A stretch of 64,000 nucleotides of DNA from a virus, in the IMG/VR virus record IMGVR_UViG_3300044797_000101, positions 32,001 through 96,000 of that record; one strand, 5' to 3'. The position numbers were made by a program, and so were the translations under genes. Numbering within the stretch: the stretch's first letter is position 1; each line of letters starts with the position of its first letter. Below, one piece after another: positions 9,868 through 47,685 of this stretch. The notes below the pieces were generated by a model. It was not told the origin of the DNA and ran no database searches. It saw nothing but the letters and a program-made list of their open reading frames with translations.

Positions 9868-10033
9868 CTGCTTTTTTCTCCAAGTACTCAAGATTAGTGG
9901 CTGGAACAAATTCAACAGCTGTGTAATATTCACCAGGTGTCTCTGTTGGGCACAGCATCATACTGCCAAGATTAAGATGTTCTTTCTCAAATCGTAGACA
10001 GTTAATACAGTGTCTATTTATGTTTTCTGGCAT
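9851..10033 (-). CDS. DNLxYLE-tagged zinc-finger protein
   Basis: CINC...FVPATNLEYLEKK. Confidence 0.75.
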   Translation of the reverse strand: MPENINRHCINCLRFEKEHLNLGSMMLCPTETPGEYYTAVEFVPATNLEYLEKKADETIR

Positions 10034-15824: not shown

Positions 15825-16099
15825 GAATCTTTATCCTGTTCACGGATTTTTATCTCGGCTTGCTCAGCCTTAAGTTCAAGATATTCTAAATTGTCCATTG
15901 GTTGATAATCAAGGCATCCGCACTTAGTTGAGCTCACACTGAATTGTCCTTGCATATATGAATCACAAGGAACCATCTCAAGGATCTTTATAAATGATTG
16001 AGTAATGCCGCCTTGTTCAATACGAAGATAGATTGCATGATGACTAACCATATGTCCGCATTTACGACACATCGCATCACTTTTAGGATAGTCTAACAT
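15818..16099 (-). CDS. DNLxYLE-tagged zinc-finger protein
   Basis: CRKCGH...CGCLDYQPMDNLEYLE. Confidence 0.8.
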   Translation of the reverse strand: MLDYPKSDAMCRKCGHMVSHHAIYLRIEQGGITQSFIKILEMVPCDSYMQGQFSVSSTKCGCLDYQPMDNLEYLELKAEQAEIKIREQDKDSW

Positions 16100-16365
16100 T
16101 CAGGTCTCTCATTCCATTCTTTTAGAATGGGAAATGTTTCAAATATATCTGCTCCAGCACGAACAGCCTTTACACGATCTAACTCTTCAAGGTATTTTAG
16201 ATTATCAACTGGTACATTCTTTAAAACAAACTTAGCCCTAGCTTCAAGCCTATTTAGAAATTCTTCTTTATCATCTGTAATAATGTATTTTTGTTTAGGA
16301 GGTTTAGGTCCTTTAAGCATTTCAGCAATCTTTTCAATATTCCAGCCCCAATCAGTTGTATCCAT
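16093..16365 (-). CDS. Protein with internal DNLxYLE motif
   Basis: VPVDNLKYLEE about 30 aa from C-terminus. Confidence 0.75.
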   Translation of the reverse strand: MDTTDWGWNIEKIAEMLKGPKPPKQKYIITDDKEEFLNRLEARAKFVLKNVPVDNLKYLEELDRVKAVRAGADIFETFPILKEWNERPEC

Positions 16366-23802: not shown

Positions 23803-24327
23803 TCATATTAGTATCAAGGGTTGATGATACTCTGGATTGAAGTGTTTGATGATCTTAAAGGCATCCTGCATGTTTAACCCGATCCAGGAATCCGTTAGGT
23901 ATTGGTTGGCAAAATTCTTTTTATCCTCAAGATAGAAGATGGGATGATCATCGACAGCTATCCAAGCTTCTACATCTTTCTGATCTTCAAGCCACCACAT
24001 GATCTCCATGTTACGCGAACTAGAAAATTTACGAGGCGTAATACCAATGAGCCTTGAACTCGGAAGACGGAAGATCTTAAATAGCTCTTTAAACTGAGGA
24101 AGACTAAATTGAGCTCCCCAAGCTGAAGAGATAACGATCTTCAAATCTGGTACCTGCTTAAGGATATACCCGAGCACCCACATATTATTATAATTAACAC
24201 TCTGTTTCATATGAAATAGATCTGCATCACTTAACGTATCAGCAGCTGGTTTTTTCTTATCCATGATAGATAAGAAATGCTGTTTGCTGTTTAGTACGCC
24301 ATCAAAATCTAGGAATAATACTTTCAT
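23803..24327 (-). CDS. HAD-family protein (Swiss-army-knife RNA-repair-like)
   Basis: LFLDFDGVLN, IVISSAW, IAVDD. Confidence 0.85.
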   Translation of the reverse strand: MKVLFLDFDGVLNSKQHFLSIMDKKKPAADTLSDADLFHMKQSVNYNNMWVLGYILKQVPDLKIVISSAWGAQFSLPQFKELFKIFRLPSSRLIGITPRKFSSSRNMEIMWWLEDQKDVEAWIAVDDHPIFYLEDKKNFANQYLTDSWIGLNMQDAFKIIKHFNPEYHQPLILI

Positions 24328-32416: not shown

Positions 32417-32445
32417 ATTATACCATGAGTAGGTAAGTTTGTCAA
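32417..32445 (-). promoter_or_regulatory. Sigma70-type promoter, leaderless
   Basis: TTGACA-17-TATAAT; ATG 5 nt after -10. Confidence 0.85.
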
Positions 32446-32460: not shown

Positions 32461-33024
32461 TTATTTCTGCAAACTATCGTGGTAGGCTATCAAATCAGCT
32501 TCAGAAATAGGCATGAAATTCCACTGATCCATACCCACGTTAATCATATGGTTCTTATACTTTCCTGGCATCGTCTTCCAAGCAGTATGCACGTGTCCAT
32601 TGATTAATAGTCTACCATCATCTGGGATGTTCTTATGATCAAACTTTGTTCTATGATGAGGATCGTCTGTACCTCTATAAGGATAATGACTGAGATTAGC
32701 TTCTGTTCCATCTGAGAGAGTAATCCTGAGACTCTGATGAACCTCTTGAAATCCGCGTTCAAGCATCTTCTCTTCTGCTCGGTCGTGGTTGCCAAGGATT
32801 AGGATCTTATGTCCATTTAGGTTCTCTACGATGTGCTTGCACCATTCAGGACTCGTGAAAGCGACATCACCCATATGATAAACTGTATCCTCAGGTTTAA
32901 CTAGTTTGTTCCATTCTGATACGATATGCCGATCCATCTCACCTGCATCCTTAAATGGACGAAGGCAATACTTAATGATGTTCGCATGACCAAAATGGGT
33001 ATCGCTTGTGAAGTATCTCGTCAT
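32461..33024 (-). CDS. Calcineurin-like metallophosphoesterase
   Basis: SDTHFGH, GD, GNHD, HYP, GHVH. Confidence 0.92.
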   Translation of the reverse strand: MTRYFTSDTHFGHANIIKYCLRPFKDAGEMDRHIVSEWNKLVKPEDTVYHMGDVAFTSPEWCKHIVENLNGHKILILGNHDRAEEKMLERGFQEVHQSLRITLSDGTEANLSHYPYRGTDDPHHRTKFDHKNIPDDGRLLINGHVHTAWKTMPGKYKNHMINVGMDQWNFMPISEADLIAYHDSLQK

Positions 33025-33283
33025 GTCTATTCTCCTTTTCAGCAACCTTAAACTCCAGGTATTCTAAATTTGTTAATGGTTCAAATGGGTGGAAGTCATA
33101 ACCTGCACGACGACAATCCGCCTTCATCTCTTCCATGTAATTCGTTATATAGCGAGAATGCTCATAACTTCCGTTTCTATAATGGGTCTCAGCATTCTCT
33201 CTATACCTATTAACGGCATCTTCCATTGAATGGAACATCTCTACTTTAAACTGTCCACAATGTCTACAAGGAATCATGTTCAT
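32972..33283 (-). CDS. DNLxYLE-tagged zinc-finger protein
   Basis: CRHCG...FEPLTNLEYLE. Confidence 0.8.
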   Translation of the reverse strand: MNMIPCRHCGQFKVEMFHSMEDAVNRYRENAETHYRNGSYEHSRYITNYMEEMKADCRRAGYDFHPFEPLTNLEYLEFKVAEKENRHDEILHKRYPFWSCEHH

Positions 33284-33488
33284 TTGCTTTGTTCTCTAAG
33301 TATTCTAGGTTGTCACAAAGCTCTGACATATGATCATATTGAGGCACAAGCGCGATACCATCTGCTCTTGGGAATTGAGCCTCATAAGATGTAAACTTAG
33401 GATCTTTTATAATAACGAATAGCTCATGATACATGTTCTTTCTTCCACATATCTTACAAGGCCAATCCATTAGCAATGGTGTCTTCAT
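33264..33488 (-). CDS. DNLxYLE-tagged zinc-finger protein
   Basis: CKICG...LCDNLEYLE. Confidence 0.8.
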   Translation of the reverse strand: MKTPLLMDWPCKICGRKNMYHELFVIIKDPKFTSYEAQFPRADGIALVPQYDHMSELCDNLEYLENKANEHDSL

Positions 33489-33697
33489 TTGCTCAGCTCT
33501 TCTAAATACCTAAGGTTATCTCGTTGATATCTCTCACATCTACAATCAAACATATAATCACTTGAATGCCTGCAAAGATAAGAATTACTTGTTAAATGAA
33601 GTTTTTCTAAATGTCCACAGGTACACGGAAATTTATTACTCAAAACTTCAGGGGTCCAAAGATTATGATATCTTGGCCATGTATTAGCTTTAAACAT
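33485..33697 (-). CDS. DNLxYLE-tagged zinc-finger protein
   Basis: CTCGH...CRCERYQRDNLRYLE. Confidence 0.8.
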   Translation of the reverse strand: MFKANTWPRYHNLWTPEVLSNKFPCTCGHLEKLHLTSNSYLCRHSSDYMFDCRCERYQRDNLRYLEELSK

Positions 33698-33872
33698 TTT
33701 TAGTTAAACTCTCTAAATACTTTAGATTGTCCGGAACAAATACATGTTGCCATGTTGTACTGTTTGCATAATCATAAAAACATTTTTCACATAATTTAGG
33801 AGCATTACCAATATTATAGTGTTCAGATTCGAAATGACTACAAATCTTACAAGGGAAATTAACTTCATTCAT
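33690..33872 (-). CDS. DNLxYLE-tagged zinc-finger protein
   Basis: CKICSH...HVFVPDNLKYLE. Confidence 0.8.
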   Translation of the reverse strand: MNEVNFPCKICSHFESEHYNIGNAPKLCEKCFYDYANSTTWQHVFVPDNLKYLESLTKNV

Positions 33873-34036
33873 ACTAAGCTCTCCAAGTATCTTAGATTGT
33901 CACCGTTGAAATCATGATAACAATCTATTCTTTTTAACTCAATACAGTCCCAACAGACTTGCCCATCATGAAATGAGGAATGCGTAGTATGTCTATCTTT
34001 GTCATGTGCGCACATACAGATATTAACTTCTAGCAT
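33869..34036 (-). CDS. DNLxYLE-tagged zinc-finger protein (55 aa, below track cutoff)
   Basis: Manual: MLEVNICMCAH...HDFNGDNLRYLESLV. Confidence 0.8.
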   Translation of the reverse strand: MLEVNICMCAHDKDRHTTHSSFHDGQVCWDCIELKRIDCYHDFNGDNLRYLESLV

Positions 34037-34889
34037 GCTTATGAAACTCCTTTGCGATACTCAAGACAACGTTACGACCTGTATCTGTTCCCAAGACATA
34101 TCCATCTAATTCTACTACAGGTGTAACCTCTGCATAGGTTCCACATATGAATACACCATCTGCTGTAATTATATCAGGTGCAGTTAGCTTTCTTTCAATA
34201 ACTTTATAGCCAGAACGCTTAGCTACACAAGACATGATGAACTCTCTCGTGAGACCTGGCAAGATGTTCCCATCGCTTGGTGGAGTGTATAACGTTATAC
34301 CTGTATTATCAATCTTAACCATGAAAAGGTTAGCTGTCAATGCTTCCGTGTAATACCCATTCCGATCTGTAAGGAACACAGTATCTGTACCAGTTTCTTT
34401 AGATAGATGCTCAAGGGACCTGAAGAATCCATAGTTGTTTGTGCTCTTGCATTGCATCCAATAATCGGGATACGAACGCTGCTTGGGTGAAGTGATTGCC
34501 TTAATCCCTAGGCGATCTTGGTTGGATGGGAGTAGAAAAGAATGTACCTCAACATTGACATCAGGACTACTTGTCTTCGCTCCTTCAGCCTTCCCAGAAT
34601 AGTAGATGACCGGACGGATATACTGTTCTCCGCCACCATTCGCAACTAAGACATCAATGCAAGCATTCATGAGAGTTAGCTTATCAAAGGGCATTGGAAC
34701 TCTTAATAGCTTGGCAGAGTTGAAGAGGCGAGTGATATGATCATCTAGTAAAAAAATAGTATTTTTACCATTCTTATCTACATAGGATCGAATCCCTTCC
34801 CACACAGCTGATCCATAGTGTAAGGACCAATTGAAGGAATCTATTTGAATCGGTGAGTCGACGACCTTTCCGTTAAGCCAAGCTTTCAT
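34023..34889 (-). CDS. ilvE: Branched-chain amino acid aminotransferase (class IV PLP)
   Basis: LHYGSAVWEGIR, HITRL, YIRP, CKSTNNY, ILPGLTR, GTYAEVTPV. Confidence 0.88.
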   Translation of the reverse strand: MKAWLNGKVVDSPIQIDSFNWSLHYGSAVWEGIRSYVDKNGKNTIFLLDDHITRLFNSAKLLRVPMPFDKLTLMNACIDVLVANGGGEQYIRPVIYYSGKAEGAKTSSPDVNVEVHSFLLPSNQDRLGIKAITSPKQRSYPDYWMQCKSTNNYGFFRSLEHLSKETGTDTVFLTDRNGYYTEALTANLFMVKIDNTGITLYTPPSDGNILPGLTREFIMSCVAKRSGYKVIERKLTAPDIITADGVFICGTYAEVTPVVELDGYVLGTDTGRNVVLSIAKEFHKHARS

Positions 34890-34890
34890 A

Positions 34891-35103
34891 TCATTCCTTT
34901 TGCTTACTTTTATATTCCAGATACTCAAGGTTCGACATCGGTCCAAAGAAGCAAAGGTTCAAGACTCTGCCATGCTCATCCTCTGCGGTTGGACAAACAA
35001 CCCTCTCAGCATACTCACCAGTTGCAGACCAATCATCATGCACATCCTTAAGCTCATGACAATACCTACAAAGCTGCTCGTTGGAACTAAGATCGTTGTT
35101 CAT
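34891..35103 (-). CDS. DNLxYLE-tagged zinc-finger protein
   Basis: CRYCH...FGPMSNLEYLE. Confidence 0.8.
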   Translation of the reverse strand: MNNDLSSNEQLCRYCHELKDVHDDWSATGEYAERVVCPTAEDEHGRVLNLCFFGPMSNLEYLEYKSKQKE

Positions 35104-35299
35104 CTTTATATTCCAAGTATTCCAGATTATCTATGATAGCACGATGACTAGTTACCAATGGTTCACCATACCAATCTACATCAAGACCTTGTTTCACATA
35201 ATAATTACGATCTGCACAGAAGAATACCTTATGGAATCTATTGCGCTGTCCACAAATGATGCAACGCTTATTTAGAACTTCTATGTGTTGATTCGACAT
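35087..35299 (-). CDS. DNLxYLE-tagged zinc-finger protein
   Basis: CIICG...AIIDNLEYLE. Confidence 0.8.
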   Translation of the reverse strand: MSNQHIEVLNKRCIICGQRNRFHKVFFCADRNYYVKQGLDVDWYGEPLVTSHRAIIDNLEYLEYKDEQRS

Positions 35300-35603
35300 A
35301 TTTCCATTCTATATATTCTAAGTTGTTTACTTTACGAAATATATCACCATGAATCCTATGTTGGTACATCTCACCTTGTTTCACCACAGCAACAAGCTCC
35401 ATCATCTTCAGTGGCATCTCACCATGAGTTAAAAGTATTGGATAGCATTTGGCATATTGATACATAACATGATCAGGTCCATAATTAATCAATACAACTT
35501 GAGTTTGTATAATCTTTGAGTCACTGATTATAACAGTAACACTACCCTCTACCGCTGGACACTCTATATTATAAAGAGGACTTATTATTGAGCGTTCGTT
35601 CAC
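35268..35603 (-). CDS. Tagged protein (no zinc finger)
   Basis: FRKVNNLEYIEW. Confidence 0.75.
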   Translation of the reverse strand: MNERSIISPLYNIECPAVEGSVTVIISDSKIIQTQVVLINYGPDHVMYQYAKCYPILLTHGEMPLKMMELVAVVKQGEMYQHRIHGDIFRKVNNLEYIEWKYVESTHRSSK

Positions 35604-35757
35604 TTTTTTCCTCTAAGTACTTAAGGTTATCTAGGATAAAGTTATGAAGCATAACCCATCCCATACAATTGTGGCATTTGCCTACTGTATTAGGATACAA
35701 TCGATGGTTCCGCTTTGGATGACCACAAACCTTACAGTTTCGATCTAGTCGCTTCAT
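35569..35757 (-). CDS. DNLxYLE-tagged zinc-finger protein
   Basis: CKVCGH...HNFILDNLKYLE. Confidence 0.8.
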   Translation of the reverse strand: MKRLDRNCKVCGHPKRNHRLYPNTVGKCHNCMGWVMLHNFILDNLKYLEEKSERTLNNKSSL

Positions 35758-35926
35758 ATTCTAGGTACGTTAAATTATCCATGGGTCTAAACATTGTGCA
35801 GCTCTCACAGATAAGACATTCACTATAAACCTTTGGTTGCGGCTGTAACGTTGCACACGTAGAGCACGAGTGAGGCAAATGCTCGAAGTCCCAACATCCA
35901 CACTCACAAGGTATCTTGCTGCTCAT
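35732..35926 (-). CDS. DNLxYLE-tagged zinc-finger protein
   Basis: CECGC...FRPMDNLTYLE. Confidence 0.8.
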   Translation of the reverse strand: MSSKIPCECGCWDFEHLPHSCSTCATLQPQPKVYSECLICESCTMFRPMDNLTYLEYEATRSKL

Positions 35927-36089
35927 TCTTATATTCCAAATACTCTAAATTATCCATCCATTCAATCTGATGTGATGAACCAATTGGCTTACTCTTCCTG
36001 CATTCTGAACAAACATAAATAAGTCTAGCTACCCATGCTAATGTATGATAGGTAAAGAAATGCCCGCACTTACAAGGTCTTTTGATCAT
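35904..36089 (-). CDS. DNLxYLE-tagged zinc-finger protein
   Basis: CKCGH...EWMDNLEYLE. Confidence 0.8.
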   Translation of the reverse strand: MIKRPCKCGHFFTYHTLAWVARLIYVCSECRKSKPIGSSHQIEWMDNLEYLEYKNEQQDTL

Positions 36090-36291
36090 TTAGAAACTCT
36101 AGATATTCTAAGTTACCAGCTGGCTGATAGGAAATCCATTCCCAATCCGAATCAGGTATGATGTTCCCGTTCTCTATCTCATGCTGCATCACTACAGATA
36201 GGTGATCGAACTGACAAAGCCCTTCATAGGTTCCTTCTGTTCTATGATCCTTCTCAAGCATCCCGCAATTCTTACAGGGTCTTTCTGCCAC
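36070..36291 (-). CDS. DNLxYLE-tagged zinc-finger protein
   Basis: CKNCG...YQPAGNLEYLE. Confidence 0.8.
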   Translation of the reverse strand: MAERPCKNCGMLEKDHRTEGTYEGLCQFDHLSVVMQHEIENGNIIPDSDWEWISYQPAGNLEYLEFLNDQKTL

Positions 36292-36490
36292 AATGATCCT
36301 CTAAATACTTTAGGTTATCAGGTCGAAACTCACGACATCGACATGTTGTCGTCGTCTTATGAGTACCCGACCTTAATTGTTCTAATGTAATCACGCTATA
36401 CAAGCAGCCGAACATAACGGAGTCCGGATCAAAGTTGTGGGTCTTCTCTTCATGCCCGCAAAGGCAATTAAATTTTATCTTTCTTTTCAC
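36272..36490 (-). CDS. DNLxYLE-tagged zinc-finger protein
   Basis: CLCGH...CRCREFRPDNLKYLE. Confidence 0.8.
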   Translation of the reverse strand: MKRKIKFNCLCGHEEKTHNFDPDSVMFGCLYSVITLEQLRSGTHKTTTTCRCREFRPDNLKYLEDHCGRKTL

Positions 36491-36671
36491 TCAACTGCTC
36501 CAGATACTTCAGGTTATCGCTGCTCACCCATTCATTACACTTGCATCCATAAGATGAATGACTTGGTGATACAAACTCATTTGAGCACTGGTTTTCAGGA
36601 CGTGAAATCCCAACATACATTGTATGCCAATGCTTACAATTCCTACATTGCCACCCTTTAAAGTCTACCAT
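36468..36671 (-). CDS. DNLxYLE-tagged zinc-finger protein
   Basis: CRNCKH...CKCNEWVSSDNLKYLE; start reassigned to MVDFKG. Confidence 0.8.
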   Translation of the reverse strand: MVDFKGWQCRNCKHWHTMYVGISRPENQCSNEFVSPSHSSYGCKCNEWVSSDNLKYLEQLSEKKDKI

Positions 36672-36834
36672 ATGTTGCCAGATATTCCAAGTAAATAAGA
36701 TTCGTGAAGTATTCACGCTCAAACCATATCTTTAATAGATTACCTTTTGTTGTATATATGGCAGAGTTATCTAGATAAAAATAAAGTTCTTTAGCTGTAT
36801 GAATCGTAAACTGCTCATCACAACGGCTACACAT
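36658..36834 (-). CDS. Tagged small protein (58 aa, below track cutoff)
   Basis: Manual: MCSRCDEQFTIH...EYFTNLIYLEY. Confidence 0.75.
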   Translation of the reverse strand: MCSRCDEQFTIHTAKELYFYLDNSAIYTTKGNLLKIWFEREYFTNLIYLEYLATYGRL

Positions 36835-37201
36835 GACGATTTTGTTCCCATTCTAGGTATTCGAGGTTAGACATGATGGTCCAATCCTCATTGTAATCTT
36901 TAAGGAATACTCCCTTTCCAAACTTAGCCTCAGGCTTTAATACTGGAATGGTCTTGAACTCCCACCACTCAGAACCATCATACTCATGACGTTCCATCCA
37001 CCAATCATCACCTACAACAACTAGTGAACCATTAACCTCTTGTCCGCCATACCCAGCATCGTATTCCTTATCCGCTATCTCTAGGAAGTAGTCAGGATGG
37101 ATCTTAACGTTCCCATCTGAATGTCCTATCCATCGGACATCAGCCATGGTTTTATTATGGTGCGACATAAAGATGATCGTTTCTTCTTTAAGATTGCTCA
37201 T
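36827..37201 (-). CDS. Phage domain protein with appended tag
   Basis: YDAGYGGQE...WWMERHEYDGSEWWEF then IMSNLEYLEW. Confidence 0.8.
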   Translation of the reverse strand: MSNLKEETIIFMSHHNKTMADVRWIGHSDGNVKIHPDYFLEIADKEYDAGYGGQEVNGSLVVVGDDWWMERHEYDGSEWWEFKTIPVLKPEAKFGKGVFLKDYNEDWTIMSNLEYLEWEQNRHV

Positions 37202-37496
37202 GTGCTTTCCATTCGAGGTACTCAAGATTGTTTGTAAAGAATGGGTGATTCATAATCGTACGATTTGCGCCATCCTTATGCTGATGCTCACTTACCTTAC
37301 AGAATGAACAGATACGTTCCTCAAACTTTAATGTAACAACTCCAGCTGGATAATATACCGCCATCCCAATATCCTCATAGACAGAGAAGGTATCAGTTGC
37401 AACGCCAATGATAGGATCTGTTTCATTAATAGCTTTAATAACCTGTCCTTGCTGATTGACAGTTATCAAATCACCTTTATTTATTCGATCGTTCAT
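37188..37496 (-). CDS. Tagged protein: beta-rich N-domain plus zinc finger
   Basis: KGDLITVN...IIGVA; CSFC...HPFFTNNLEYLEW. Confidence 0.8.
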   Translation of the reverse strand: MNDRINKGDLITVNQQGQVIKAINETDPIIGVATDTFSVYEDIGMAVYYPAGVVTLKFEERICSFCKVSEHQHKDGANRTIMNHPFFTNNLEYLEWKAHEQS

Positions 37497-37728
37497 ATTC
37501 CCACTCAAGCATCTCTAGATTGTTCCTAAAGAATGGATGTTGCTCTTCTCCCTCGTGACCATGCTCATAGTTTGTTACACCACATTTAGCGCATGTGATA
37601 GAACTTACAAAAAGACTATTTGTATTCATGAATCTATTTAACTCAGCGATTATCTTCTCTTGTTCAGCTGTCCACTTAGCAACTTCGTCAGACAGATAGA
37701 TGAGAGGTTTAAGATCGTTGTCGAACAT
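37477..37728 (-). CDS. DNLxYLE-tagged zinc-finger protein
   Basis: CAKCG...HPFFRNNLEMLEW. Confidence 0.8.
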   Translation of the reverse strand: MFDNDLKPLIYLSDEVAKWTAEQEKIIAELNRFMNTNSLFVSSITCAKCGVTNYEHGHEGEEQHPFFRNNLEMLEWEYERSNK

Positions 37729-37897
37729 ACATCCTCTCTAAATACTCTAAGTTATTAAAGATACCATCTAAACACTTACAGCGCTTGGTCGCACACTGTT
37801 GATGCTCATACTTAAAGCTACCATCAGCACAATACTCCAAGATGCTCATGAAGTGAACGTGCTTACAAATCAAGCAAGGCTTATTCTCTGGTAGCAC
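37709..37897 (-). CDS. DNLxYLE-tagged zinc-finger protein
   Basis: CLICKH...CKCLDGIFNNLEYLE. Confidence 0.8.
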   Translation of the reverse strand: MLPENKPCLICKHVHFMSILEYCADGSFKYEHQQCATKRCKCLDGIFNNLEYLERMYVRQRS

Positions 37898-38096
37898 TTT
37901 TCCACTCCAGAAACTCTAAGTTATTAGAGATAAACGGATGAGCCGTGAATCCCTCATTGTGAGACCATTCAGCTGCTTTACAATACTGACAATAGGCAAT
38001 CTGATTATCATGAGGTATCGGTGCCCAACCATGTCCTGTATAAACCATCGTGACATTAGCTTCAATGTCATAGATGAGCTCACCGATCTGACTCAC
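37881..38096 (-). CDS. DNLxYLE-tagged zinc-finger protein
   Basis: CQYC...HPFISNNLEFLEW. Confidence 0.8.
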   Translation of the reverse strand: MSQIGELIYDIEANVTMVYTGHGWAPIPHDNQIAYCQYCKAAEWSHNEGFTAHPFISNNLEFLEWKSATRE

Positions 38097-38622
38097 TTGT
38101 GCTCACCAACTGATAGCGTACAATTACAAATAGCTTTATGCTGCTCAAGCTCTTTATTAACCTTCTTGAGCTCTGCTTCTAGAAAACCTATGTTATGCCA
38201 AAGCTCAGCAGGACAAGGTTCTTTACAATTATCCCCGTGTGTTCTTATCATATTCTTTCCTTTTCAAATAGTCTTTGATATAGCTTTTCAGTGTACATAG
38301 ATGATCAAGATAACTGAGACCGTCAATCTTACCTTCTTTGCCCAGCTTACGTATCATAGCGATAGCATTGTCACAATGCTTCTTCTCTGGGAAATCAATC
38401 TGCTCAACCATGAATACCCAGTTGCCACTCACCGTCTCATCTGTCTTATACGCATCACAAAGTGTAAGGTGATTGTGGTGCTCAACGAATAGAAGACCTG
38501 GCAACCAAGTCTGGTTATCCTTAACATGAGGTGTAATCCTGTAAACGATATGACCATTGACACTTCCAAACTTACCTACTGGAAGCTCATGAATCCTAAT
38601 GAGACCTGGTTTATTAACCCAC

Positions 38623-38814
38623 TTAGGCTTTAGCGTTGCCACTTAGTTCCTTTATAGCATGTAAGCATTCTAGATACAAGAGGTTATCTCCATTTGAACT
38701 TCGTATGGTCCACGCAGTGAATTCTAATAGCCTAAGCTTCTCAGGTATAGGCATTTCAAGCTTGTTGATGACCATGCTTACAAAACTAGCGGAGATTATT
38801 TCTTGTTGGGACAT
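38623..38814 (-). CDS. Tagged protein (no zinc finger)
   Basis: NGDNLLYLE. Confidence 0.75.
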   Translation of the reverse strand: MSQQEIISASFVSMVINKLEMPIPEKLRLLEFTAWTIRSSNGDNLLYLECLHAIKELSGNAKA

Positions 38815-38977
38815 TGATCAAGCTCATCTGGTATTCCCATTCTAATAGCTCAAGGTTATTCATAGGGATAAACCTATTACATCCTGTTGTATCAGGCATA
38901 TTCTCCCAATCCAATAGGATATATAGATGAGCCTCGTAAGTATCCTTACATGTCATGCATCGTTTATCTTTGTTCAT
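38786..38977 (-). CDS. DNLxYLE-tagged zinc-finger protein
   Basis: CMTC...FIPMNNLELLEW. Confidence 0.8.
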   Translation of the reverse strand: MNKDKRCMTCKDTYEAHLYILLDWENMPDTTGCNRFIPMNNLELLEWEYQMSLINVPTRNNLR

Positions 38978-39116
38978 TTAAATACTCCAGATACTCTAGA
39001 TTATCCATCGCTTCAAAGTGTATCATCTCACCATTACAATAATAATCTCCTGCCCAACCATCATCGTAATCGTGTTCATCCTTCAGCTTCTTACAATGCT
39101 TACAGACGTTGAGCAT
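38964..39116 (-). CDS. DNLxYLE-tagged zinc-finger protein (50 aa, below track cutoff)
   Basis: Manual: MLNVCKHCKK...FEAMDNLEYLEYLNEQR. Confidence 0.8.
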   Translation of the reverse strand: MLNVCKHCKKLKDEHDYDDGWAGDYYCNGEMIHFEAMDNLEYLEYLNEQR

Positions 39117-39294
39117 CGCTCTTCCATTCTAAGAATTCTAAGTTGTCCATTGGCATATACTGATCACAAGGACATTGCCCATATTCGCTATACACACACC
39201 AACCACGAAAATCCTCATCAAGTTCCATATCATCGTTACAGAAGATCTTATGATCTTCTTTCTTGTGGAAGCAATTACAAGGAAGCTCGGCCAT
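39100..39294 (-). CDS. DNLxYLE-tagged zinc-finger protein
   Basis: CNCFH...CPCDQYMPMDNLEFLEW. Confidence 0.8.
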   Translation of the reverse strand: MAELPCNCFHKKEDHKIFCNDDMELDEDFRGWCVYSEYGQCPCDQYMPMDNLEFLEWKSDAQRL

Positions 39295-39487
39295 TCTTCT
39301 TTGCCTCTAAGATCTCTAATAACCTAAGGTTATCCTTTATAAATATACCACATACGATGTTAACTCCATAGGTATTTAAATGACTGCGTGTTTTATAGCA
39401 TTCCCAACAGACACCACCATTAAGATCACCATACCCTACAAGGTGATTTGTCTTTACATGGCCACACTTACAGATGCTCTTACTCAC
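39275..39487 (-). CDS. DNLxYLE-tagged zinc-finger protein
   Basis: CKCGH...FIKDNLRLLE. Confidence 0.8.
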   Translation of the reverse strand: MSKSICKCGHVKTNHLVGYGDLNGGVCWECYKTRSHLNTYGVNIVCGIFIKDNLRLLEILEAKKNGRASL

Positions 39488-39719
39488 TAGCTTTCTGCTC
39501 TAAGAACTGAAGGTTATCTACTGATTGAAACGCCTCAATGTGATTAGGCACGATCCACACATCTCCATACTTCTTATCATGAAAGCTATAATGAGGAGAA
39601 TTAGAATTTTGATCTGTCCAATTAAATGTTCCTTCAAAGATATTACCAGACTTCATAAACAACCGGAAAAACACGTTAGGTTTCCCATCCATCTTTTGTC
39701 TTAATTCATAGAGATACAT
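39480..39719 (-). CDS. Tagged protein, possible Sm-like fold
   Basis: RLFMKSGNIFEGTF...VWIVPNHIEAFQSVDNLQFLE. Confidence 0.75.
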   Translation of the reverse strand: MYLYELRQKMDGKPNVFFRLFMKSGNIFEGTFNWTDQNSNSPHYSFHDKKYGDVWIVPNHIEAFQSVDNLQFLEQKASE

Positions 39720-39961
39720 TACTTGCTTTTCTCCTCTAAATACCTCAAGTTGTCTAGCTTAAACAATAGACAAGGACATTCATTATAATCTATCTTATAG
39801 TTCTCGGCCACGTTCTTATACCAGCTACACTTTGTAAAGACCTTCACCTTGATGATCGTTACAACCTCTTGCTTAAAGCGAAGATCATACTCTGTTTGCT
39901 CATTCTCATGGAATGAAGCAGTGTGTCCACACGTACAAGGATCTTCAAGCTCTGTCTTCAT
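39719..39961 (-). CDS. DNLxYLE-tagged zinc-finger protein
   Basis: CTCGH...CPCLLFKLDNLRYLE. Confidence 0.8.
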   Translation of the reverse strand: MKTELEDPCTCGHTASFHENEQTEYDLRFKQEVVTIIKVKVFTKCSWYKNVAENYKIDYNECPCLLFKLDNLRYLEEKSK

Positions 39962-40146
39962 TTGCTCAATCTCTCTAGGTGCCTCAGGTTATTAGGCTTA
40001 AACTTATGCCATGGATAATAGCAACTGCTATCTGGTTCATTCCTGCTTATATAACAATCCCCACAATAATCCGTATACTTAGGATGTGCTGCTTGTACAT
40101 GACGTTTCCTTGTATGACCGCAATCACACGTAAAGCTATTGGACAT
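39958..40146 (-). CDS. DNLxYLE-tagged zinc-finger protein
   Basis: CDCGH...HKFKPNNLRHLE; start reassigned to MSNSF. Confidence 0.8.
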   Translation of the reverse strand: MSNSFTCDCGHTRKRHVQAAHPKYTDYCGDCYISRNEPDSSCYYPWHKFKPNNLRHLERLSK

Positions 40147-40301
40147 GCTCTGCTCTACCTTCCAATACACAGATAAATCCTTCTGTCCACCACCAAAGTA
40201 TAAACAACCAGACAACTGGCAGCAGAACAACTGCTAGTAGGATTATACCAGATACGAATGCTAAAGTAAAGAACAATGTTCCAATGGCTATCAAGATCTT
40301 C

Positions 40302-40628
40302 TTAAACATAATACTCAGGCTCCCTTTCACTCTTTTCTAATAACTCTAGGTATTCTAGGTTGTTCATCCTATAAACTGTACATGGACATCTACTACTGAA
40401 ATCAGCTGTAAAATCATGGCATCTTTGCGGGTAGTCTGGATTGCTTCCAATACGTGAAGTATGATACCAACGTCTATGACCACACAGACACGAAACCTTA
40501 TCTAGTAAAAGATCATGCTTACGTTTCTCATGCTTCTTGAAATCCTTATACAGCATTATACTACTGATTATAAGATACCCAATAGCAAACGCAACTGCAC
40601 CACCAAGTATATAGATATTCTTATCCAT
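40302..40628 (-). CDS. Membrane-anchored tagged zinc-finger protein
   Basis: N-terminal TM; CLCGH...CPCTVYRMNNLEYLE. Confidence 0.8.
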   Translation of the reverse strand: MDKNIYILGGAVAFAIGYLIISSIMLYKDFKKHEKRKHDLLLDKVSCLCGHRRWYHTSRIGSNPDYPQRCHDFTADFSSRCPCTVYRMNNLEYLELLEKSEREPEYYV

Positions 40629-40878
40629 GAAGTAAACTCTCTAACCACTTTAGGTTATCCTGCTTGAACATTCTACACTTACAAAACACTGCATTGCAAT
40701 CTGTAAAGATGAACTCCTTAGTGAGTGTCATGAGATTCTCTTGCATATATCTGTGATGTTTATAAGCAGAGTGTTCGCACACACAATGCTTCCTCAAGAT
40801 CTCAAAGATAAGCTCTTTTACATTAGAAGCTCTTACCAACTTCTCCCATGGAATACAATAAGTCTCAGGGGTTAGCAT
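40621..40878 (-). CDS. DNLxYLE-tagged zinc-finger protein
   Basis: CVCEH...CKCRMFKQDNLKWLE. Confidence 0.8.
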   Translation of the reverse strand: MLTPETYCIPWEKLVRASNVKELIFEILRKHCVCEHSAYKHHRYMQENLMTLTKEFIFTDCNAVFCKCRMFKQDNLKWLESLLHG

Positions 40879-41050
40879 GGGCTTTCTTCTCTAAATAATC
40901 CAGGTTGTCTTGCTTGTAGGCAAGGCATTGACACACAGAGATTCGCATCAGGTGTGTCATGCAATGGTCTTGATAGTCGTCACCATCGTGCTGACGCTTC
41001 AGATGACCACAGATGCAGAGATAGTTAAGGTCTTCGCGCAGTCTTCTCAT
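40865..41050 (-). CDS. DNLxYLE-tagged zinc-finger protein
   Basis: CICGH...CQCLAYKQDNLDYLE. Confidence 0.8.
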   Translation of the reverse strand: MRRLREDLNYLCICGHLKRQHDGDDYQDHCMTHLMRISVCQCLAYKQDNLDYLEKKAHANP

Positions 41051-41219
41051 CAGCTAAGTCCTCTAATAGACGTAGATTATCTTGACTATATCCAGAACAG
41101 TTGCAATGGTTTCCTTCTCTCTCAAACCTGAAATAACAATCCTGATACCAATTGCCATCAGCTGCAATGTGGTGGTAAGCGATATGTCCGCAGACACATT
41201 TGGTATATGGATTAGGCAT
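41025..41219 (-). CDS. DNLxYLE-tagged zinc-finger protein
   Basis: CVCGH...CNCSGYSQDNLRLLE. Confidence 0.8.
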   Translation of the reverse strand: MPNPYTKCVCGHIAYHHIAADGNWYQDCYFRFEREGNHCNCSGYSQDNLRLLEDLADEKTARRP

Positions 41220-42117
41220 TTGGTGGAGGAACTGGCGGGGTTGGATTCTTCCTCAAGATCTTGCTATGCCTAAAGAACCGTTCGATATGGTACTTAGCAT
41301 AGTTGTAACTATCCTTGAAGACCGATTTAGCGAGTGCACGGTTGGGATTGAATATGTCCACAGGTTGAGTAAGACCTGGAGCTAAGTAGATAAGCTTTGT
41401 CTTGCCAACCTTCTTGGGCCATATCTCCTTCTCAGTGATACTCATACTGCGACGTACGATCTCTAGGATAGGAAAGATATCATCCTCTAGATAACTATTA
41501 TCATCCGTTGTCTGCTCGTAGCTTAGGTTGGACACGATAATATAATCTAGATCAGGATGAACGTTAAGCAATGCTTTAGGGAGCTCATCCTTAAGCATTG
41601 CGCCATCGATATAGTATTGCCCATCAATTAGCTTAGGCATGAACATTACAGGGATTGCCGCTGAAGCTCTGCACTTCTCTGAAATCTTACCTGTATTGAA
41701 TAGACGAAGCTTATAGGTTTTGAGGTCGGTTGCTGATACATAGAAGGGAATCTCTGTCTTACTGAAATCGTCCTTATCCGCAAGACGATCAGCGACATAC
41801 TGCTCAAGCTTCTCACCCTTAATAAACCCCTTGAAATTCTTAGCCTTATTTACAATGAACTCTTTTAAGATATCGAAGCGTGAAACCTTATCGAGGAATT
41901 GGTCCGCTGTTAATGTGAGCATGTGGTGAAGCATAACCTGATCGTTAAGTCCTGCTGCCATGAATGAACCAATGATTGAACCCGCTGAAGCTCCTAAGAT
42001 AACCTTCGGCTTGATACCTAAATCCCTAATAGCCTTAACAACACCCGTGTGCGCGTAAATCCCCTTAAGACTTCCACCAATTAAGATCAATCCAATCTTT
42101 GGCTGGTTCTCTTCCAT
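41212..42117 (-). CDS. Patatin-like phospholipase
   Basis: GGSLKG, GASAG, ASAAIP, IDGA. Confidence 0.9.
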   Translation of the reverse strand: MEENQPKIGLILIGGSLKGIYAHTGVVKAIRDLGIKPKVILGASAGSIIGSFMAAGLNDQVMLHHMLTLTADQFLDKVSRFDILKEFIVNKAKNFKGFIKGEKLEQYVADRLADKDDFSKTEIPFYVSATDLKTYKLRLFNTGKISEKCRASAAIPVMFMPKLIDGQYYIDGAMLKDELPKALLNVHPDLDYIIVSNLSYEQTTDDNSYLEDDIFPILEIVRRSMSITEKEIWPKKVGKTKLIYLAPGLTQPVDIFNPNRALAKSVFKDSYNYAKYHIERFFRHSKILRKNPTPPVPPPNA

Positions 42118-42132: not shown

Positions 42133-42141
42133 ATTATAACA
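42133..42141 (-). promoter_or_regulatory. Extended -10 promoter upstream of patatin and the main tagged array
   Basis: TGtTATAAT in intergenic gap; no clear -35. Confidence 0.5.
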
Positions 42142-46482: not shown

Positions 46483-47685
46483 CTATTTATCTACTATCTG
46501 GATTAGATCAGCCTCGTATGCCGTAACACTCTGTAAACTGTAATAGAATCGCTCTACGACATCATCTGGGACTCTCTTTTCTCTTGCCCTATTCCGTTCA
46601 TGCAATGTGGTAAGGGGAATGTCAAAATAGATAGCAGAGCAGAGTGCCCCGTTTCGTCTACCGATCTCCCAAAGCATCTTCCTAAGCTTTCGGGTGGCAT
46701 TTGTCCCATCTACGATGACGTTCTCTCGGTTCTCCATCGCTTCAGTAAGCGTTCGTTGTTGCCAAGCAAATACTTCAGAGTTTCTAGATTGATCATTAAT
46801 ATCTCCAGTAAGCTCTTTGCGGCGATCATCCATGCTGATGACCCGAATTCCTGGATACTGGGCGACAAGCTTCTCTCTTATCGTAGACTTGCCTGATCCT
46901 GGCGCGCCGATGAGGAGCATAAGCTGAAAGTTCTGCTTTCCTGGTTGGACCATAAGCTCTTGAGCTGCTTCATAGGTATTGTAATCTTCTGGTGCTCCAT
47001 TCATCAGGATATTCCAGCGAGCAAGAGAATAGGAAGCATCATCTAAGCTTGTAGCAAGAGGCACACGATAAGGACGATCCCATACCCCAATGTCCTCACA
47101 ATTCTGCTTAAACAATTCAAGCAAGAACATGCTCGAAGCCATATCATTACATGTACGACCAAGCGTATCGGCTTGAGATAGAACGTATAGATGCTTTACG
47201 TTCAGTGAGAGCGAGAGCATCTTAAGCTTCGTCACTGAACAGGTTTCATCCTTCATCCAAATTCGTGGTTGCATGTGCCATTCGATTAAGCGACAAACAA
47301 CCTCGCGTTGCTTGTAGCTAAACTCTGGGAAGTATTTACGCATAAATTCATTAGCAAGTGGAACACCTGCTTCATCGTGTCCATATGCTGTGATCTTATT
47401 CTTCTTAGCATTGAAGACACTCGTCTTCGGCTTCCCGATATCATGGAGAAGCGTAGCAAGATAGATCAAAGGCTTATACTGCGCAGCGATGTTCTCAGCT
47501 TCCATGAGTTGCAGCACGATGCGTCCTGCCATATTTACATGGATAAGAACGTTCCCCTCAGCATGATGTGTTGCTGTTTGATTGCAAGCCTCAAGACTAT
47601 TCAATTCAGGAATCACATCTCTGAACTGGAATAGATCTAAAGACTTTACATTAATAACAGCATCATGGAATTCTTGAACACTCAT
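46483..47685 (-). CDS. HD-domain plus P-loop kinase fusion (polynucleotide kinase/phosphatase-like)
   Basis: HHAEGNV, LLHDIGK, GHD; GAPGSGKST, IVDGTN, RNRAR. Confidence 0.88.
   Translation of the reverse strand: MSVQEFHDAVINVKSLDLFQFRDVIPELNSLEACNQTATHHAEGNVLIHVNMAGRIVLQLMEAENIAAQYKPLIYLATLLHDIGKPKTSVFNAKKNKITAYGHDEAGVPLANEFMRKYFPEFSYKQREVVCRLIEWHMQPRIWMKDETCSVTKLKMLSLSLNVKHLYVLSQADTLGRTCNDMASSMFLLELFKQNCEDIGVWDRPYRVPLATSLDDASYSLARWNILMNGAPEDYNTYEAAQELMVQPGKQNFQLMLLIGAPGSGKSTIREKLVAQYPGIRVISMDDRRKELTGDINDQSRNSEVFAWQQRTLTEAMENRENVIVDGTNATRKLRKMLWEIGRRNGALCSAIYFDIPLTTLHERNRAREKRVPDDVVERFYYSLQSVTAYEADLIQIVDK

Follow-up and report, generated by a model that had tools for sequence, protein, structure and literature searches.

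The window (the whole 64-kb stretch of DNA that was analysed) belongs to a 119,809-bp contig of an uncultured large peat phage, in which a family of genes sharing one short tag takes about a fifth of the genes. Between a patatin-like phospholipase gene and a metallophosphoesterase (MPE) gene lies an 8-kb array of 36 ORFs, all on the minus strand. The strict tag was defined as N-L-x-[YFWLMH]-L-E, and a wider form, N-L-x-[YFWLMH]-[LI]-E, admits the variant NLEYIE. In the list below, percentages are identities of orthologs, and "zinc mini-protein" stands for a tagged ORF with a putative zinc knuckle:

42133..42141, minus, promoter-like site of the extended -10 type, TGTTATAAT, in the 41-nt gap ahead of patatin; -35 poor (3/6)
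41212..42117, minus, patatin-like phospholipase (PF01734, E 1.4e-23), untagged, first gene upstream of the array
41025..41219, minus, zinc mini-protein, NLRLLE (AlphaFold2 pLDDT 63.9, helix 48-61)
40865..41050, minus, zinc mini-protein, NLDYLE, reciprocal best paralog of 41025
40621..40878, minus, zinc mini-protein, NLKWLE
40302..40628, minus, zinc mini-protein, NLEYLE, N-terminal hydrophobic segment (L088 37%)
40242..40270, minus, candidate internal promoter TTTACT-17-(TG)TATAAT, inside the 57-aa two-TM ORF
40136..40309, minus, untagged 57-aa two-TM ORF, overlapping the stop codon before it with its ATG and the ATG after it with its stop codon
39958..40146, minus, zinc mini-protein, NLRHLE, starting at the ATG of MSNSF (L083 55%)
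39719..39961, minus, zinc mini-protein, NLRYLE
39480..39719, minus, tagged protein without Cys, NLQFLE
39275..39487, minus, zinc mini-protein, NLRLLE
39100..39294, minus, zinc mini-protein, NLEFLE (L088 61%, L083 57%)
38964..39116, minus, zinc mini-protein, NLEYLE
38786..38977, minus, zinc mini-protein, NLELLE
38623..38814, minus, tagged protein without Cys or His, NLLYLE
38229..38642, minus, untagged 137-aa ORF, no family match
38093..38251, minus, untagged 52-aa ORF
37881..38096, minus, tagged, HPF-x-x-NNLExLEW subgroup
37709..37897, minus, zinc mini-protein, NLEYLE
37477..37728, minus, tagged, HPF subgroup, NLEMLE
37188..37508, minus, tagged, HPF subgroup, NLEYLE
36827..37225, minus, phrog_3972-type domain (E 3.3e-31, no Cys) plus tag (L082 70%, tag kept)
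36658..36834, minus, tagged small protein, NLIYLE, N-terminal CxxC...H (L082 53%)
36468..36722, minus, zinc mini-protein, NLKYLE; true start probably an internal ATG
36272..36490, minus, zinc mini-protein, NLKYLE
36070..36291, minus, zinc mini-protein, NLEYLE
35904..36089, minus, zinc mini-protein, NLEYLE
35732..35926, minus, zinc mini-protein, NLTYLE
35569..35757, minus, zinc mini-protein, NLKYLE (P0004 71%, L081 53%)
35268..35603, minus, 111-aa ORF with variant tag NLEYIE, without zinc knuckle
35087..35299, minus, zinc mini-protein, NLEYLE (46-50% in L082, L083, L088 and L102)
34891..35103, minus, zinc mini-protein, NLEYLE (L087 60%)
34023..34946, minus, class IV aminotransferase (PF01063, E 9.6e-44), untagged, inside the array; probable start ATG at 34889
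33869..34036, minus, zinc mini-protein, NLRYLE
33690..33872, minus, zinc mini-protein, NLKYLE, best-modelled member
33485..33697, minus, zinc mini-protein, NLRYLE
33264..33488, minus, zinc mini-protein, NLEYLE
32972..33283, minus, tagged, long helical insert, NLEYLE, last member of the array (L083 and L088 39-40%, tag kept)
32461..33045, minus, MPE (phrog_547, E 5.8e-47), last gene before the next promoter
32417..32445, minus, perfect TTGACA-17-(TG)TATAAT promoter in the 49-nt gap after MPE, where the next unit starts

The tag is present in 32 of the 36 array ORFs, in its strict form in 31, where 3-26 residues remain after it, and as the variant in 35268-35603 alone; the four ORFs without it are the aminotransferase, 38229-38642, 38093-38251 and the two-TM ORF. 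If the longest possible ORFs are used, neighbouring genes overlap all the way from patatin to MPE, by 1-74 nt each. The dense array of about 32 overlapping tagged genes described in the initial annotation is therefore real, and the smaller arrays that it placed at 6.9-8.0, 15.4-18.0, 19.4-20.8 and 42.6-43.9 kb were recovered with two, four, four and four tagged ORFs (at 6.9-7.6, 15.8-18.0, 19.4-20.8 and 42.6-44.0 kb). The window holds 53 tags, whereas shuffled sequence had 0.06 on average and never more than 1 (200 shuffles); unrelated phage DNA (80 loci, 1,487,427 bases) holds one. The whole contig has 58 strict tags, all on the minus strand. Orthologs of MPE were found in L082 (74%) and L095 (68%), and for the patatin gene tblastn of related loci L081-L108 gave no match.

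The coding strand carries 22 copies of the motif TG[GT]TA[TG]AA[TC] and the opposite strand 2; the motif is often preceded by GGGG-TTGACA and often lies in one of the few intergenic gaps. The site at 42133..42141 is a candidate start of the array transcription unit. The array had been described as free of internal consensus promoters, which holds for generic sigma-70-like matches (52 vs 47.6 ± 7.0, chance level) but not for the site at 40270-40242, which matches the phage's own early-promoter signature TATCTGGTATAAT. The array would be a translationally coupled polycistron transcribed from sigma-70-like extended -10 promoters, a picture that is partly inferred, and the promoter-like motifs suggest early or middle expression; a late-promoter-like motif occurs near the structural genes, distant from the array.

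A new feature of the junctions is that the end of the tag appears to double as the Shine-Dalgarno site of the next gene. Among 206 tags with a downstream ORF, the next start codon lies at +7 from the Glu codon in 65 and at +10 in 22 (14/56 and 11/56 tags in this genome). The Leu-Glu codons supply GGAG in 29/68 tags at spacing 7-8 and 10/28 at spacing 10-11, compared with 6/77 at spacing 12-40 and 6/57 without a start within 40 nt. Because of this start position and this GGAG bias, the tag end can be read as the Shine-Dalgarno site of the next cistron, which adds a further constraint on the final two codons of the tag. The commonest Leu-Glu codon pair is TTAGAA (58/206 tags), unlike a Shine-Dalgarno site, and the motif is also kept in 57 of 238 tags that are not followed by a start codon in the next 40 nt. 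The overlap accounts for most of the 3-13 residues that follow the tag, and part of the conservation directly behind the motif (K/L at +2, Y/S at +3) is probably due to the overlapping start region of the next gene rather than to protein function. Such a repeated junction design would be expected if one unit had been duplicated in tandem.

Most tag carriers are members of a single unnamed family, 50-130 aa long, that follows the pattern C-x(1-2)-C-G-H-x4-H...C-x2-C...[C/H]-x-[FY]-x2-DNLxYLE. From N- to C-terminus, each unit has a short variable N-terminus, a Cys/His scaffold with loops free in length and sequence, and an invariant helix that begins D-N-L-x-Y-L-E. Among 149 relatives, C8, C11, H18, N49, L50 and E54 are 100% conserved, followed by F/Y45 (99%), H13 and C28 (97%), D48 and L53 (96%) and C31 (87%), and the conserved Cys and His residues point to zinc binding. 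The motif lies 3-24 residues from the C-terminus in 147 of the 149 cluster representatives listed. The family profile gave 64 matches in this 120-kb partial genome, 15-52 per record in five of five related phage records (52 in a complete genome of 192,085 bp), and 1526 metagenomic cluster representatives at E<=1e-3; no match was found in Pfam, PHROGs, NCBIfam, 50,697 phage records or 185,579 species genomes. P0021, P0022 and P0027 are in-frame two-unit fusions, with two matched stretches each; a search for fusions to known domains gave none, a weak negative. The home of the family is uncultured phages of ~190 kb from peat and soil metagenomes, and within its old expansion, which spans this lineage, the 8-kb array forms the largest block.

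The motif is selected as protein, because synonymous sites vary freely. In the 58 tags, codon positions 1 and 2 are fixed and synonymous sites variable (AAT/AAC 33/25, GAA/GAG 22/36, Leu TTR/CTN mixed), and the Asn codon is AAT in 68% of 238 tags against a genome background of 69%. The AlphaFold2 model of 33690-33872 shows a compact fold (pLDDT 85.6, pTM 0.64) in which helix 49-58 is the tag, with block-mean pLDDT 83-90; in the zinc members the tag is confidently modelled as an integral helix of the fold and would be no loose appendage. Tag position x covaries with the residue four further on (chi2 152, n = 373, uncorrected for kinship), E/D going with an aromatic residue in 60/91 and K/R with a non-aromatic one in 228/239, as would be expected on one helix face.

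The Cys/His knuckle is present in 51 of the 58 strict-tagged ORFs and absent by regular expression from seven, among which 1787-1963 does contain C-x-C-G. The motif is also present on at least six unrelated proteins without the zinc knuckle. For the phrog_3972 domain of 36827-37225, 258 cultured-phage records match residues ~8-101 alone, ending before the tag, and none of them covers at least 80% of the protein. N-L-x-[YFL]-L-E is kept in 7/7 orthologs examined, which belong to five tagged proteins (four without a zinc knuckle and one divergent member with a long insert). In one of these, 16093-16365, the motif is followed by 30 further conserved residues, with no coupled downstream start.

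We favour, with a probability of about one half, a polycistronic repertoire of small binders with a shared docking helix, built on an old expansion of the zinc family. The binders would be early and host-directed, acting on proteins of the host or of competitors; each would owe its target specificity to the variable loops, and the invariant helix would form a common surface docking all members onto one shared partner. This docking role is favoured over a purely structural one because at least six unrelated non-zinc proteins carry the motif and their orthologs retain it. No partner of the tag helix was found. The points that might favour an anti-defence role are limited to small size, probable early expression and gene turnover.

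A tentative alternative, which we consider rather unlikely, is that the helix is a structural keystone of the small zinc domain without a shared partner, in a plain lineage-specific expansion of, for example, transcription factors (TFs) or DNA-binding proteins. In the zinc members its invariance could be purely structural, given the compact model, the well-modelled helix and the invariant D, N and E, as expected for capping or ligand residues. The few non-zinc carriers could then be chimeras from recombination at the junctions, retaining a member's 3' end and junction, and the two-unit fusions mark the junctions as rearrangement sites. However, retention in all seven orthologs and the conserved stretch past the motif in 16093-16365 argue against this, and the Shine-Dalgarno constraint, limited to the Leu-Glu codons, leaves the retention of D, N, L and Y in chimeras unexplained. 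Furthermore, searches for DNA-binding family matches to these proteins found none.

The initial annotation proposed accordion-like tandem duplication in an arms race; taken as a recent event that left local sub-lineages of fresh duplicates, this now seems improbable, and it is only partly supported. The members are indeed mostly tandem paralogs, judging by the shared knuckle, the profile matches and the one repeated junction design, and the regions before the tag are hypervariable, in line with the N-terminal diversification proposed there. Array content also differs strongly among relatives: L082 has ~2 ORFs at the place of ~18 in the window, and in L083 and L088 the interval bounded by the same flanks holds 15 tagged ORFs, of which just 5-6 are orthologs. 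The tag variants HPF, xQDNL and LEY(K/E) were all located at the genes to which they had been assigned. Whole-protein similarity backs the HPF trio (37188/37477/37881) and the pair 40865/41025 but not the LEY(K/E) group, and the HPF subgroup is already found in L081, L083 and L095. Local clustering is weak overall; tag flanks of neighbours are slightly more alike (6.27 vs 4.31 ± 1.05, p 0.035), runs tests are not significant (p 0.08-0.24), and head similarity of neighbours gave p 0.26. Neighbours proved no more alike than distant members (Mantel rho +0.04, p 0.73; best paralog within 2 ranks for 3/59 members vs 4.0 expected), which is part of what the initial annotation had named as a refutation of its model. 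The best paralogs share ~30-47% identity over at least 45 aa, whereas many array members have orthologs in other phages at 45-70%; because orthologs are closer than paralogs, the duplications predate the divergence of these phages. The array is also present in a second peat metagenome from another study, where 25 of 27 pieces are at least 99% identical and no joint is listed inside the array, a weak negative that covers contigs only. On the recent time scale the model is largely refuted.

More doubtful still is that the helix serves as an address label, either a degron or adaptor tail that the phage's ClpP pair or AAA+ protein would recognise, or a capsid-targeting peptide by which the proteins would be packed into the head for injection. 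The phage does encode two ClpP paralogs (PF00574, E 1.7e-66 and 9.1e-26), a PF00004 AAA protein is conserved at 58-73% identity in 5/5 related records, and in three phages the divergent ClpP immediately follows tagged genes. However, the tails after the tag are variable (3-30 residues), so the extreme C-terminus lacks the conservation of classical C-terminal degrons; ClpP2 turned up in 2/5 related records (three of the five being fragments), the AAA gene is situated in the replication module, and the tagged genes stand under sigma-70-like promoters, away from the late-promoter-like motif. Least probable of all is a nucleic-acid signal (ribosome-binding or coupling element, promoter or recombination site) merely translating as DNLxYLE: the motif ends exactly at the expected Shine-Dalgarno position, with start peaks and a spacing-dependent GGAG bias, but as sole cause it is refuted by synonymous, codon-periodic variation, and Asn codon choice at background, tags without a nearby start, tags internal to longer conserved C-termini and the prevalence of TTAGAA speak against it as well.

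Among known systems, the internal proteins of phage T4 carry a capsid-targeting sequence (CTS), and the tag, as a common short peptide on unrelated small proteins, resembles it, a point for the address label. Bacillus phage G also has an expanded zinc protein, a zinc ribbon of ~35 copies, and the TF or DNA-binding role suggested in the account of that expansion by Iyer et al. (2021, PMC7824862) lends some support to the structural alternative, whereas the 0 matches of our family profile in phage G at E<=1 count against that alternative.

The window encodes a large family of small Cys/His proteins, which combine hypervariable loops with an invariant, portable C-terminal helix, coupled gene junctions and host-type promoter motifs. 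The initial annotation had described about 32 overlapping tagged genes between the patatin and the metallophosphoesterase. This block was found to hold 36 minus-strand ORFs, of which 31 end in the strict tag N-L-x-[YFWLMH]-L-E with 3-26 residues after it and one (35268-35603) in the variant NLEYIE, and every junction between them is overlapping. Four ORFs lack the tag, namely a class IV aminotransferase, a 57-aa ORF with two transmembrane (TM) stretches and two ORFs without family match. The smaller arrays listed by the same annotation are also present.

Genes flanking or interrupting the array (window positions)
41212-42117, minus strand, patatin-like phospholipase at the head of the array
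40136-40309, minus strand, 57-aa ORF with two predicted TM stretches
34023-34946, minus strand, class IV aminotransferase within the array
32461-33045, minus strand, metallophosphoesterase

The 57-aa ORF fills the sole apparent gap of the array, is coupled to its neighbours on both sides and contains a promoter-like site. The aminotransferase and the patatin look like recent auxiliary acquisitions, because neither has a tblastn match in the related loci compared. Strict tags are far more frequent than expected by chance (53 in the window, while 200 shuffles gave 0.06 on average and 1 at most). The 58 tags of the whole contig are confined to the coding strand, and only one occurs in 1.49 Mb from 80 unrelated phage loci.

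The window covers bases 32001-96000 of a single virus record of 119,809 bp. This record is 62% complete by CheckV, has a GC content of 35-44% and carries all its long ORFs on the minus strand. Along the direction of transcription, a replication and nucleotide module (DnaB-like helicase, primase, UvsX-like recombinase, SSB, family A-like DNA polymerase, NAMPT and PRPP synthetase) is followed by about 65 kb of mostly small genes and then by packaging genes (terminase, portal and protease). No close cultured phage was found, a megablast search with the array against the phage collection gave no match, and core proteins are less than 35% identical to those of database phages. No tRNA genes were found in the window, and there were 0 matches to Rfam families.

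Several other genes were noticed in the same record. A set of RNA-repair genes (window 9478-9933, 12793-13851, 14716-15462, 23803-24327, 46483-47685 and 49993-51123; positions 2285-6259 of L110) comprises cREC_REC, an Rnl2-like ligase with OB domain, Thg1, HAD_SAK_2 and an HD+AAA_33 kinase/phosphatase-like protein, and further a T4 Rnl1-like ligase and a 1324-aa protein with a 2',5'-ligase-like domain; judged by these domains, the set suggests a defence of tRNA or RNA against host nucleases. There are two ClpP paralogs (window 1189-1815 and 11649-12302), one canonical (E 1.7e-66) and one divergent (E 9.1e-26), and the divergent one has tagged genes directly upstream here and in two related loci (L102 and L105). 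A PF00004 AAA gene (own copy L111:12752-14149) is conserved at 58-73% identity in 5/5 relatives, and in one related virus record (G003, C1:36231-38642) it is split into two matches that lie about 1 kb from each other in one continuous open frame of 826 aa, which looks like an intein-type insertion. A MoxR-like AAA_5 ATPase adjoins a DUF2201 metallopeptidase/VWA protein (window 57875-58987 and 59055-60353), each with its own consensus promoter. NAMPT (phrog_448, E 2.6e-195) adjoins ribose-phosphate pyrophosphokinase in an NAD salvage module (L112:12534-14801, contig 116533-118800), next to a gene similar to MFS/BT1-type transporters.

Analysis of codons revealed that the tag is a protein feature and not a DNA signal. 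In the 58 tags, codon positions 1 and 2 are fixed while position 3 varies like synonymous sites (AAT/AAC 33/25, GAA/GAG 22/36, Leu codons mixed), and in 238 tags of the own and related phages Asn is encoded by AAT in 68%, with a genomic background of 69%. Tag position x covaries with the residue four further on (E/D with an aromatic residue in 60/91, K/R with a non-aromatic residue in 228/239; chi2 152, n 373, not corrected for relatedness), which fits a helix, and two flavours of the tag, NL-E-YLE-[WYF]-K and NL-[KR]-YLE-x-[KL]-S, occur in the window and the related loci L081-L108. An arrest peptide was set aside given the variable distance from motif to stop, and an HNH-like motif given the different order of knuckle and N-L residues and the lack of a Pfam match; a clamp-binding tail, a resemblance only, was dropped.

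An N-terminal C-x(1-2)-C...H knuckle is present in 51/58 tagged ORFs. Alignment of 149 relatives gave the signature M-x(3-5)-[ND]-[FY]-P-C-x-C-G-H-x4-H ... C-x2-C ... [C/arom]-[H]-x-[FY]-K-x-D-N-L-[KR]-Y-L-E, in which C8, C11, H18, N49, L50 and E54 are invariant and the Cys of the second knuckle are conserved in 97% (C28) and 87% (C31). Two Cys-x(1-2)-Cys knuckles at conserved positions are what is expected of a zinc ribbon, and neither the length nor the sequence of the two loops between the knuckles is constant among these relatives. With this alignment, AlphaFold2 predicted a compact model for 33690-33872 (pLDDT 85.6, pTM 0.64), whose C-terminal helix (residues 49-58) is the tag; the first model, of 41025-41219, was poor (pLDDT 63.9), yet also had a helix on the tag. 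Foldseek returned nothing usable for the latter model and no match at E<=0.001, zinc ribbons included, for the former. In a wider structure search 10/10 matches listed were RING, U-box or SP-RING domains with alignments spanning the whole model (Z only 2.0-2.4, rmsd 3.9-5.3 A, not significant), which at most hints at a metal-binding fold of cross-brace-like type. A mimic of the ClpX zinc-binding domain, which 2ds5_A presumably represents, was dropped (Foldseek E 8.0 only). Prediction of a complex of two copies of 33690-33872 with four zinc ions (score 0.00, mark 0.42) points neither way on self-association.

The family is not named by Pfam (38 window proteins), PHROGs or NCBIfam (0/35). Among 141 relatives, no curated zinc-ribbon profile matched above its cut-off; sporadic sub-threshold Pfam matches were to Ribosomal_L32p, Zn_ribbon_8 and A2L_zn_ribbon (3/141 relatives each). 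A profile search of PDB sequences gave only a weak zinc-ribbon likeness (bL32/bL31, E 0.4-0.8, not significant), and the ESM Atlas solely 'hypothetical protein' clusters labelled Viruses/Uroviricota.

The tag is portable. No zinc knuckle at all is present in at least six tagged ORFs (2307-2579, 3279-3554, 16093-16365, 36827-37225, 38623-38814 and 39480-39719), nor in the variant-tagged 35268-35603. One of them, 36827-37225, is a phrog_3972 domain (E 3.3e-31), and its 258 homologue records from cultured phages align to residues ~8-101 only (0/258 cover >=80%); since these homologues end before the tag, it was added in the present lineage. Orthologs were checked for five tagged proteins, four without zinc knuckle and a divergent member with a long insert (32972-33283), and N-L-x-[YFL]-L-E was kept in 7/7. 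We read the tagged proteins as early, host-directed small binders, whose common helix would dock onto one shared partner; to this statement as a whole we assign a probability of about 0.5, and to the docking step alone a lower one. The main rival is that the helix serves only as the structural keystone of the fold, as the last element of the compact model, and that the non-zinc carriers, in spite of the tags retained by their orthologs, are junction chimeras; we hold this to be rather unlikely. If the helix does dock onto one partner, the family would amount to a natural collection of small binders on zinc scaffolds that share one handle, and this would matter for phage-host biology and as a protein-engineering scaffold.

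A new finding here is that the gene junction is dual-coded. Among 238 tags, 206 are followed by a downstream ORF with its first start codon within 120 nt, and the spacing between Glu codon and start has sharp peaks at 7 nt (65 tags) and 10 nt (22 tags; in the own genome 14/56 and 11/56, respectively). At these spacings the Leu-Glu codons fall on the Shine-Dalgarno position. They read GGAG in 29/68 cases at spacing 7-8 and 10/28 at 10-11, while the values are 6/77 at spacing 12-40 and 6/57 without a start within 40 nt (background share of GAG 0.39), so the synonymous choice of Leu-Glu codons responds to the Shine-Dalgarno position. From the fixed spacing and the GGAG bias it follows that the variable tail after the tag is largely the initiation region of the next gene in another frame, and the apparent conservation at +2/+3 after the tag (K/L, Y/S) probably belongs to this layer. 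Such junctions would imply translational coupling along the array, and a helix end that doubles as a Shine-Dalgarno site at a set distance from the start would be an economical way to express dozens of mini-genes in a coupled, equimolar fashion. Three metagenome proteins (P0021, P0022 and P0027) are in-frame fusions of two units, each with its own tag, which indicates that junctions do undergo rearrangement. The dual-coded junction offers a concrete place for gain, loss or fusion of whole genes.

The rare intergenic gaps carry a G-rich motif with TTGACA or TTTACA, 16-17 nt and (TATC)TG[GT]TA[TG]AAT. Its extended -10 core has 22 copies on the coding strand versus 2 on the other. The early-type promoter sites lie mostly in these gaps, and only 2-3 promoter-like sites fall in the 9.8 kb from 32.4 to 42.2 kb. 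A second repeated intergenic motif, GTAGAAAAGTATAATATTTT...TATTAATAGGAG, has three copies close to structural and ClpP-like genes, and could represent a late promoter with a Shine-Dalgarno site after it.

Promoter-like sites (window positions)
60468, 59030, 56548, 52960, 48297, 46393, 43137, 42141, 40250, 32425, 31215, 29407, 27471, 14688 and 11627, minus strand, TG positions of early-type promoter sites
42141, minus strand, promoter-like site upstream of the patatin
40270-40242, minus strand, promoter-like site inside the 57-aa TM ORF
32445-32417, minus strand, perfect-consensus site after the metallophosphoesterase
1091-1188 and the contig equivalents of window -14809..-14717 and -27986..-27930, copies of GTAGAAAAGTATAATATTTT...TATTAATAGGAG

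The positions of these sites indicate that the array is probably one or two units dependent on host RNA polymerase, and motifs of this type would give it early or middle timing. Terminator-like sites are at chance level (9, versus 8.4±3.3 in shuffles).

A profile of 30 window members, searched against 1.84 billion proteins, matched 1526 representatives of 50% identity clusters at E<=1e-3, and the motif lies 3-24 residues from the C-terminus in 147/149 of the matches listed. A word-index search found 15 unnamed metagenome proteins, and scans based on DNLKYLE confirmed 28 loci in metagenome contigs, with 2-16 tagged ORFs each on one strand, and found 9 loci in IMG/VR. Profile matches number 17, 27, 41, 52 and 15 in five related virus records, one of which is a 192,085-bp genome with terminal repeats that is rated complete, and 64 in the own contig, including variant tags (DNLLFIE, DNLKTLE, DTLRYLE and others) and one match without tag. 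Many further genes are common to the related loci and the window, with 40-88% identity and conserved order. Elsewhere no member was found: tblastn of a typical relative gave no match at E<=1 in 50,697 phage records, and a scan of 185,579 species genomes gave 125 pattern matches, 0 of which were confirmed as relatives. Nothing was found in viral contigs with the patatin query or a further query (A2), and a search for longer, fused forms, weak as evidence, found none. Full-text searches of the literature by motif and keyword found no description of the family and only one analogue, in phage G. A fifth of the genes in an entire clade of large phages from soil and peat belong to one family; with at least 1526 protein clusters in public metagenomes, no name in curated libraries and no occurrence found in cultured phages, it forms a substantial and coherent part of viral dark matter, for which a searchable sequence signature now exists.

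The initial annotation had explained the array by accordion-like tandem duplication and arms-race diversification, so that neighbours should be closer than distant members. This was not observed: the similarity of tag-removed sequences is not related to distance (Spearman +0.04, Mantel p 0.73), 3/59 members have their best paralog within two ranks versus 4.0 expected, and the similarity of neighbouring heads is at the null (p 0.26). Only the flanks of the tags are slightly more similar between neighbours (6.27 vs 4.31±1.05, p 0.035), and runs tests on tag type were not significant. Of the local sub-lineages proposed from tag variants, only the HPF trio (37188, 37477 and 37881) and the pair 40865/41025 hold; the HPF type is present in other phages too. 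Nor are there the near-identical copies of a recent accordion, for paralog pairs are at most about 47% identical (best paralog ~30-47%), and many members have orthologs 45-70% identical in other phages, in partly conserved order.

Array content does differ among relatives, as the accordion model had predicted. One related locus (L082) reaches the metallophosphoesterase from its ortholog of 36658 in about 2 ORFs, where the window has about 18; two others (L083 and L088) have 15 tagged ORFs between the orthologs of the flanking genes, with only 5-6 shared orthologs and no match to the patatin or the aminotransferase. In contigs from a second peat metagenome of another study, 25/27 pieces match the array at >=99%, and in the contigs of two runs aligned to the array none of the joints listed lies inside it (3/30 bins without cover in run X2). 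Overall, the array looks like a tandem family of long standing, whose genes turn over steadily and whose sequences drift fast, and not like a recent accordion.

Early binders docking onto a shared partner can be extended to a more specific proposal, which we consider improbable. The DNLxYLE helix would be a portable address label for one conserved machine, and the ~60-100 mini-proteins per genome would form an adaptor library delivered early. The variable zinc-scaffold heads would each capture a different host protein (e.g., a defence or housekeeping factor), and the common helix would hand the captured protein to a single phage or host effector (e.g., the ClpP pair with an AAA+ unfoldase), while the dual-coded junctions, by coupled equimolar translation, would supply the whole library at once early in infection. 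Such a library would be the bacterial-virus counterpart of the poxvirus Ank/PRANC and F-box families. That the tag acts as a degron, adaptor or packaging label in general is possible but unsupported: two phage ClpP genes and a conserved phage AAA protein would suit it, but conservation is lacking at the very C-terminus of the tagged proteins.

Several known systems resemble the family in part. RING, U-box and SP-RING domains are likewise small Cys/His metal-binding domains with a terminal helix, but the ligand spacing here is not the canonical C3HC4, and no ubiquitin-type machinery was seen in the contig. The zf-DNL zinc finger of Tim15/Zim17/Hep1 (PF05180) is also small and has D-N-L and then an aromatic residue shortly past the last Cys knuckle. 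No PF05180 match was obtained in 141 relatives (E<=1) or 38 window proteins (E<=0.1), and with its different spacing the family was rejected as zf-DNL. The capsid-targeting sequence (CTS) on internal proteins of T-even phages is similarly a short peptide common to otherwise unrelated, fast-evolving small phage proteins. It sits at the N-terminus of a few late or packaged proteins and is removed by cleavage, whereas the present motif is C-terminal, helical and found in ~60 genes with early-type promoters. Among eukaryotic viruses, poxviruses have genomic accordions and Ank/PRANC multigene families, in which tandem members with variable heads share a conserved C-terminal motif by which they connect to one host machine. 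The present array is likewise a tandem viral multigene family with variable heads, but differs from the poxvirus accordion in having no near-identical copies and, in the contigs only, no joint listed inside.

Hyperplastic regions and PeSL cassettes of T4-type phages were reportedly treated by Comeau et al. in 2014. In the passages cited here, hyperplastic regions consist of small, non-essential-looking genes under sigma-70-like promoters, gene content is gained, lost and shuffled among relatives at repeated junction sequences, and PeSL is a non-coding promoter and terminator cassette between unrelated ORFs (Arbiol et al. 2010, PMC2839356). The likeness lies in blocks of small genes under sigma-70-like promoters with turnover of content at repeated junctions. 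Compared with PeSL as characterized there, the present genes overlap without intergenic DNA and do not form promoter plus terminator cassettes; the repeated junction is a coding motif with a Shine-Dalgarno site, and most of the genes are homologous.

Going by the section cited here, the only comparable published case is Bacillus phage G, with a zinc ribbon in ~35 copies, suggested to be specific transcription factors or DNA-binding proteins (Iyer et al. 2021, PMC7824862, section 3.4.3). As described there, this is likewise a large phage with one small zinc-ribbon-type protein in dozens of copies and no assigned role. By profile comparison the two families do not appear detectably related, for the family profile (A5) gave 0 matches at E<=1 in the phage G genome (NC_023719, 497,513 bp) versus 15-64 in the present clade. 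Furthermore, the present phage has at least 64 copies in 62% of a genome, and its family carries the DNLxYLE helix, found also on non-zinc proteins, and the dual-coded gene junction.
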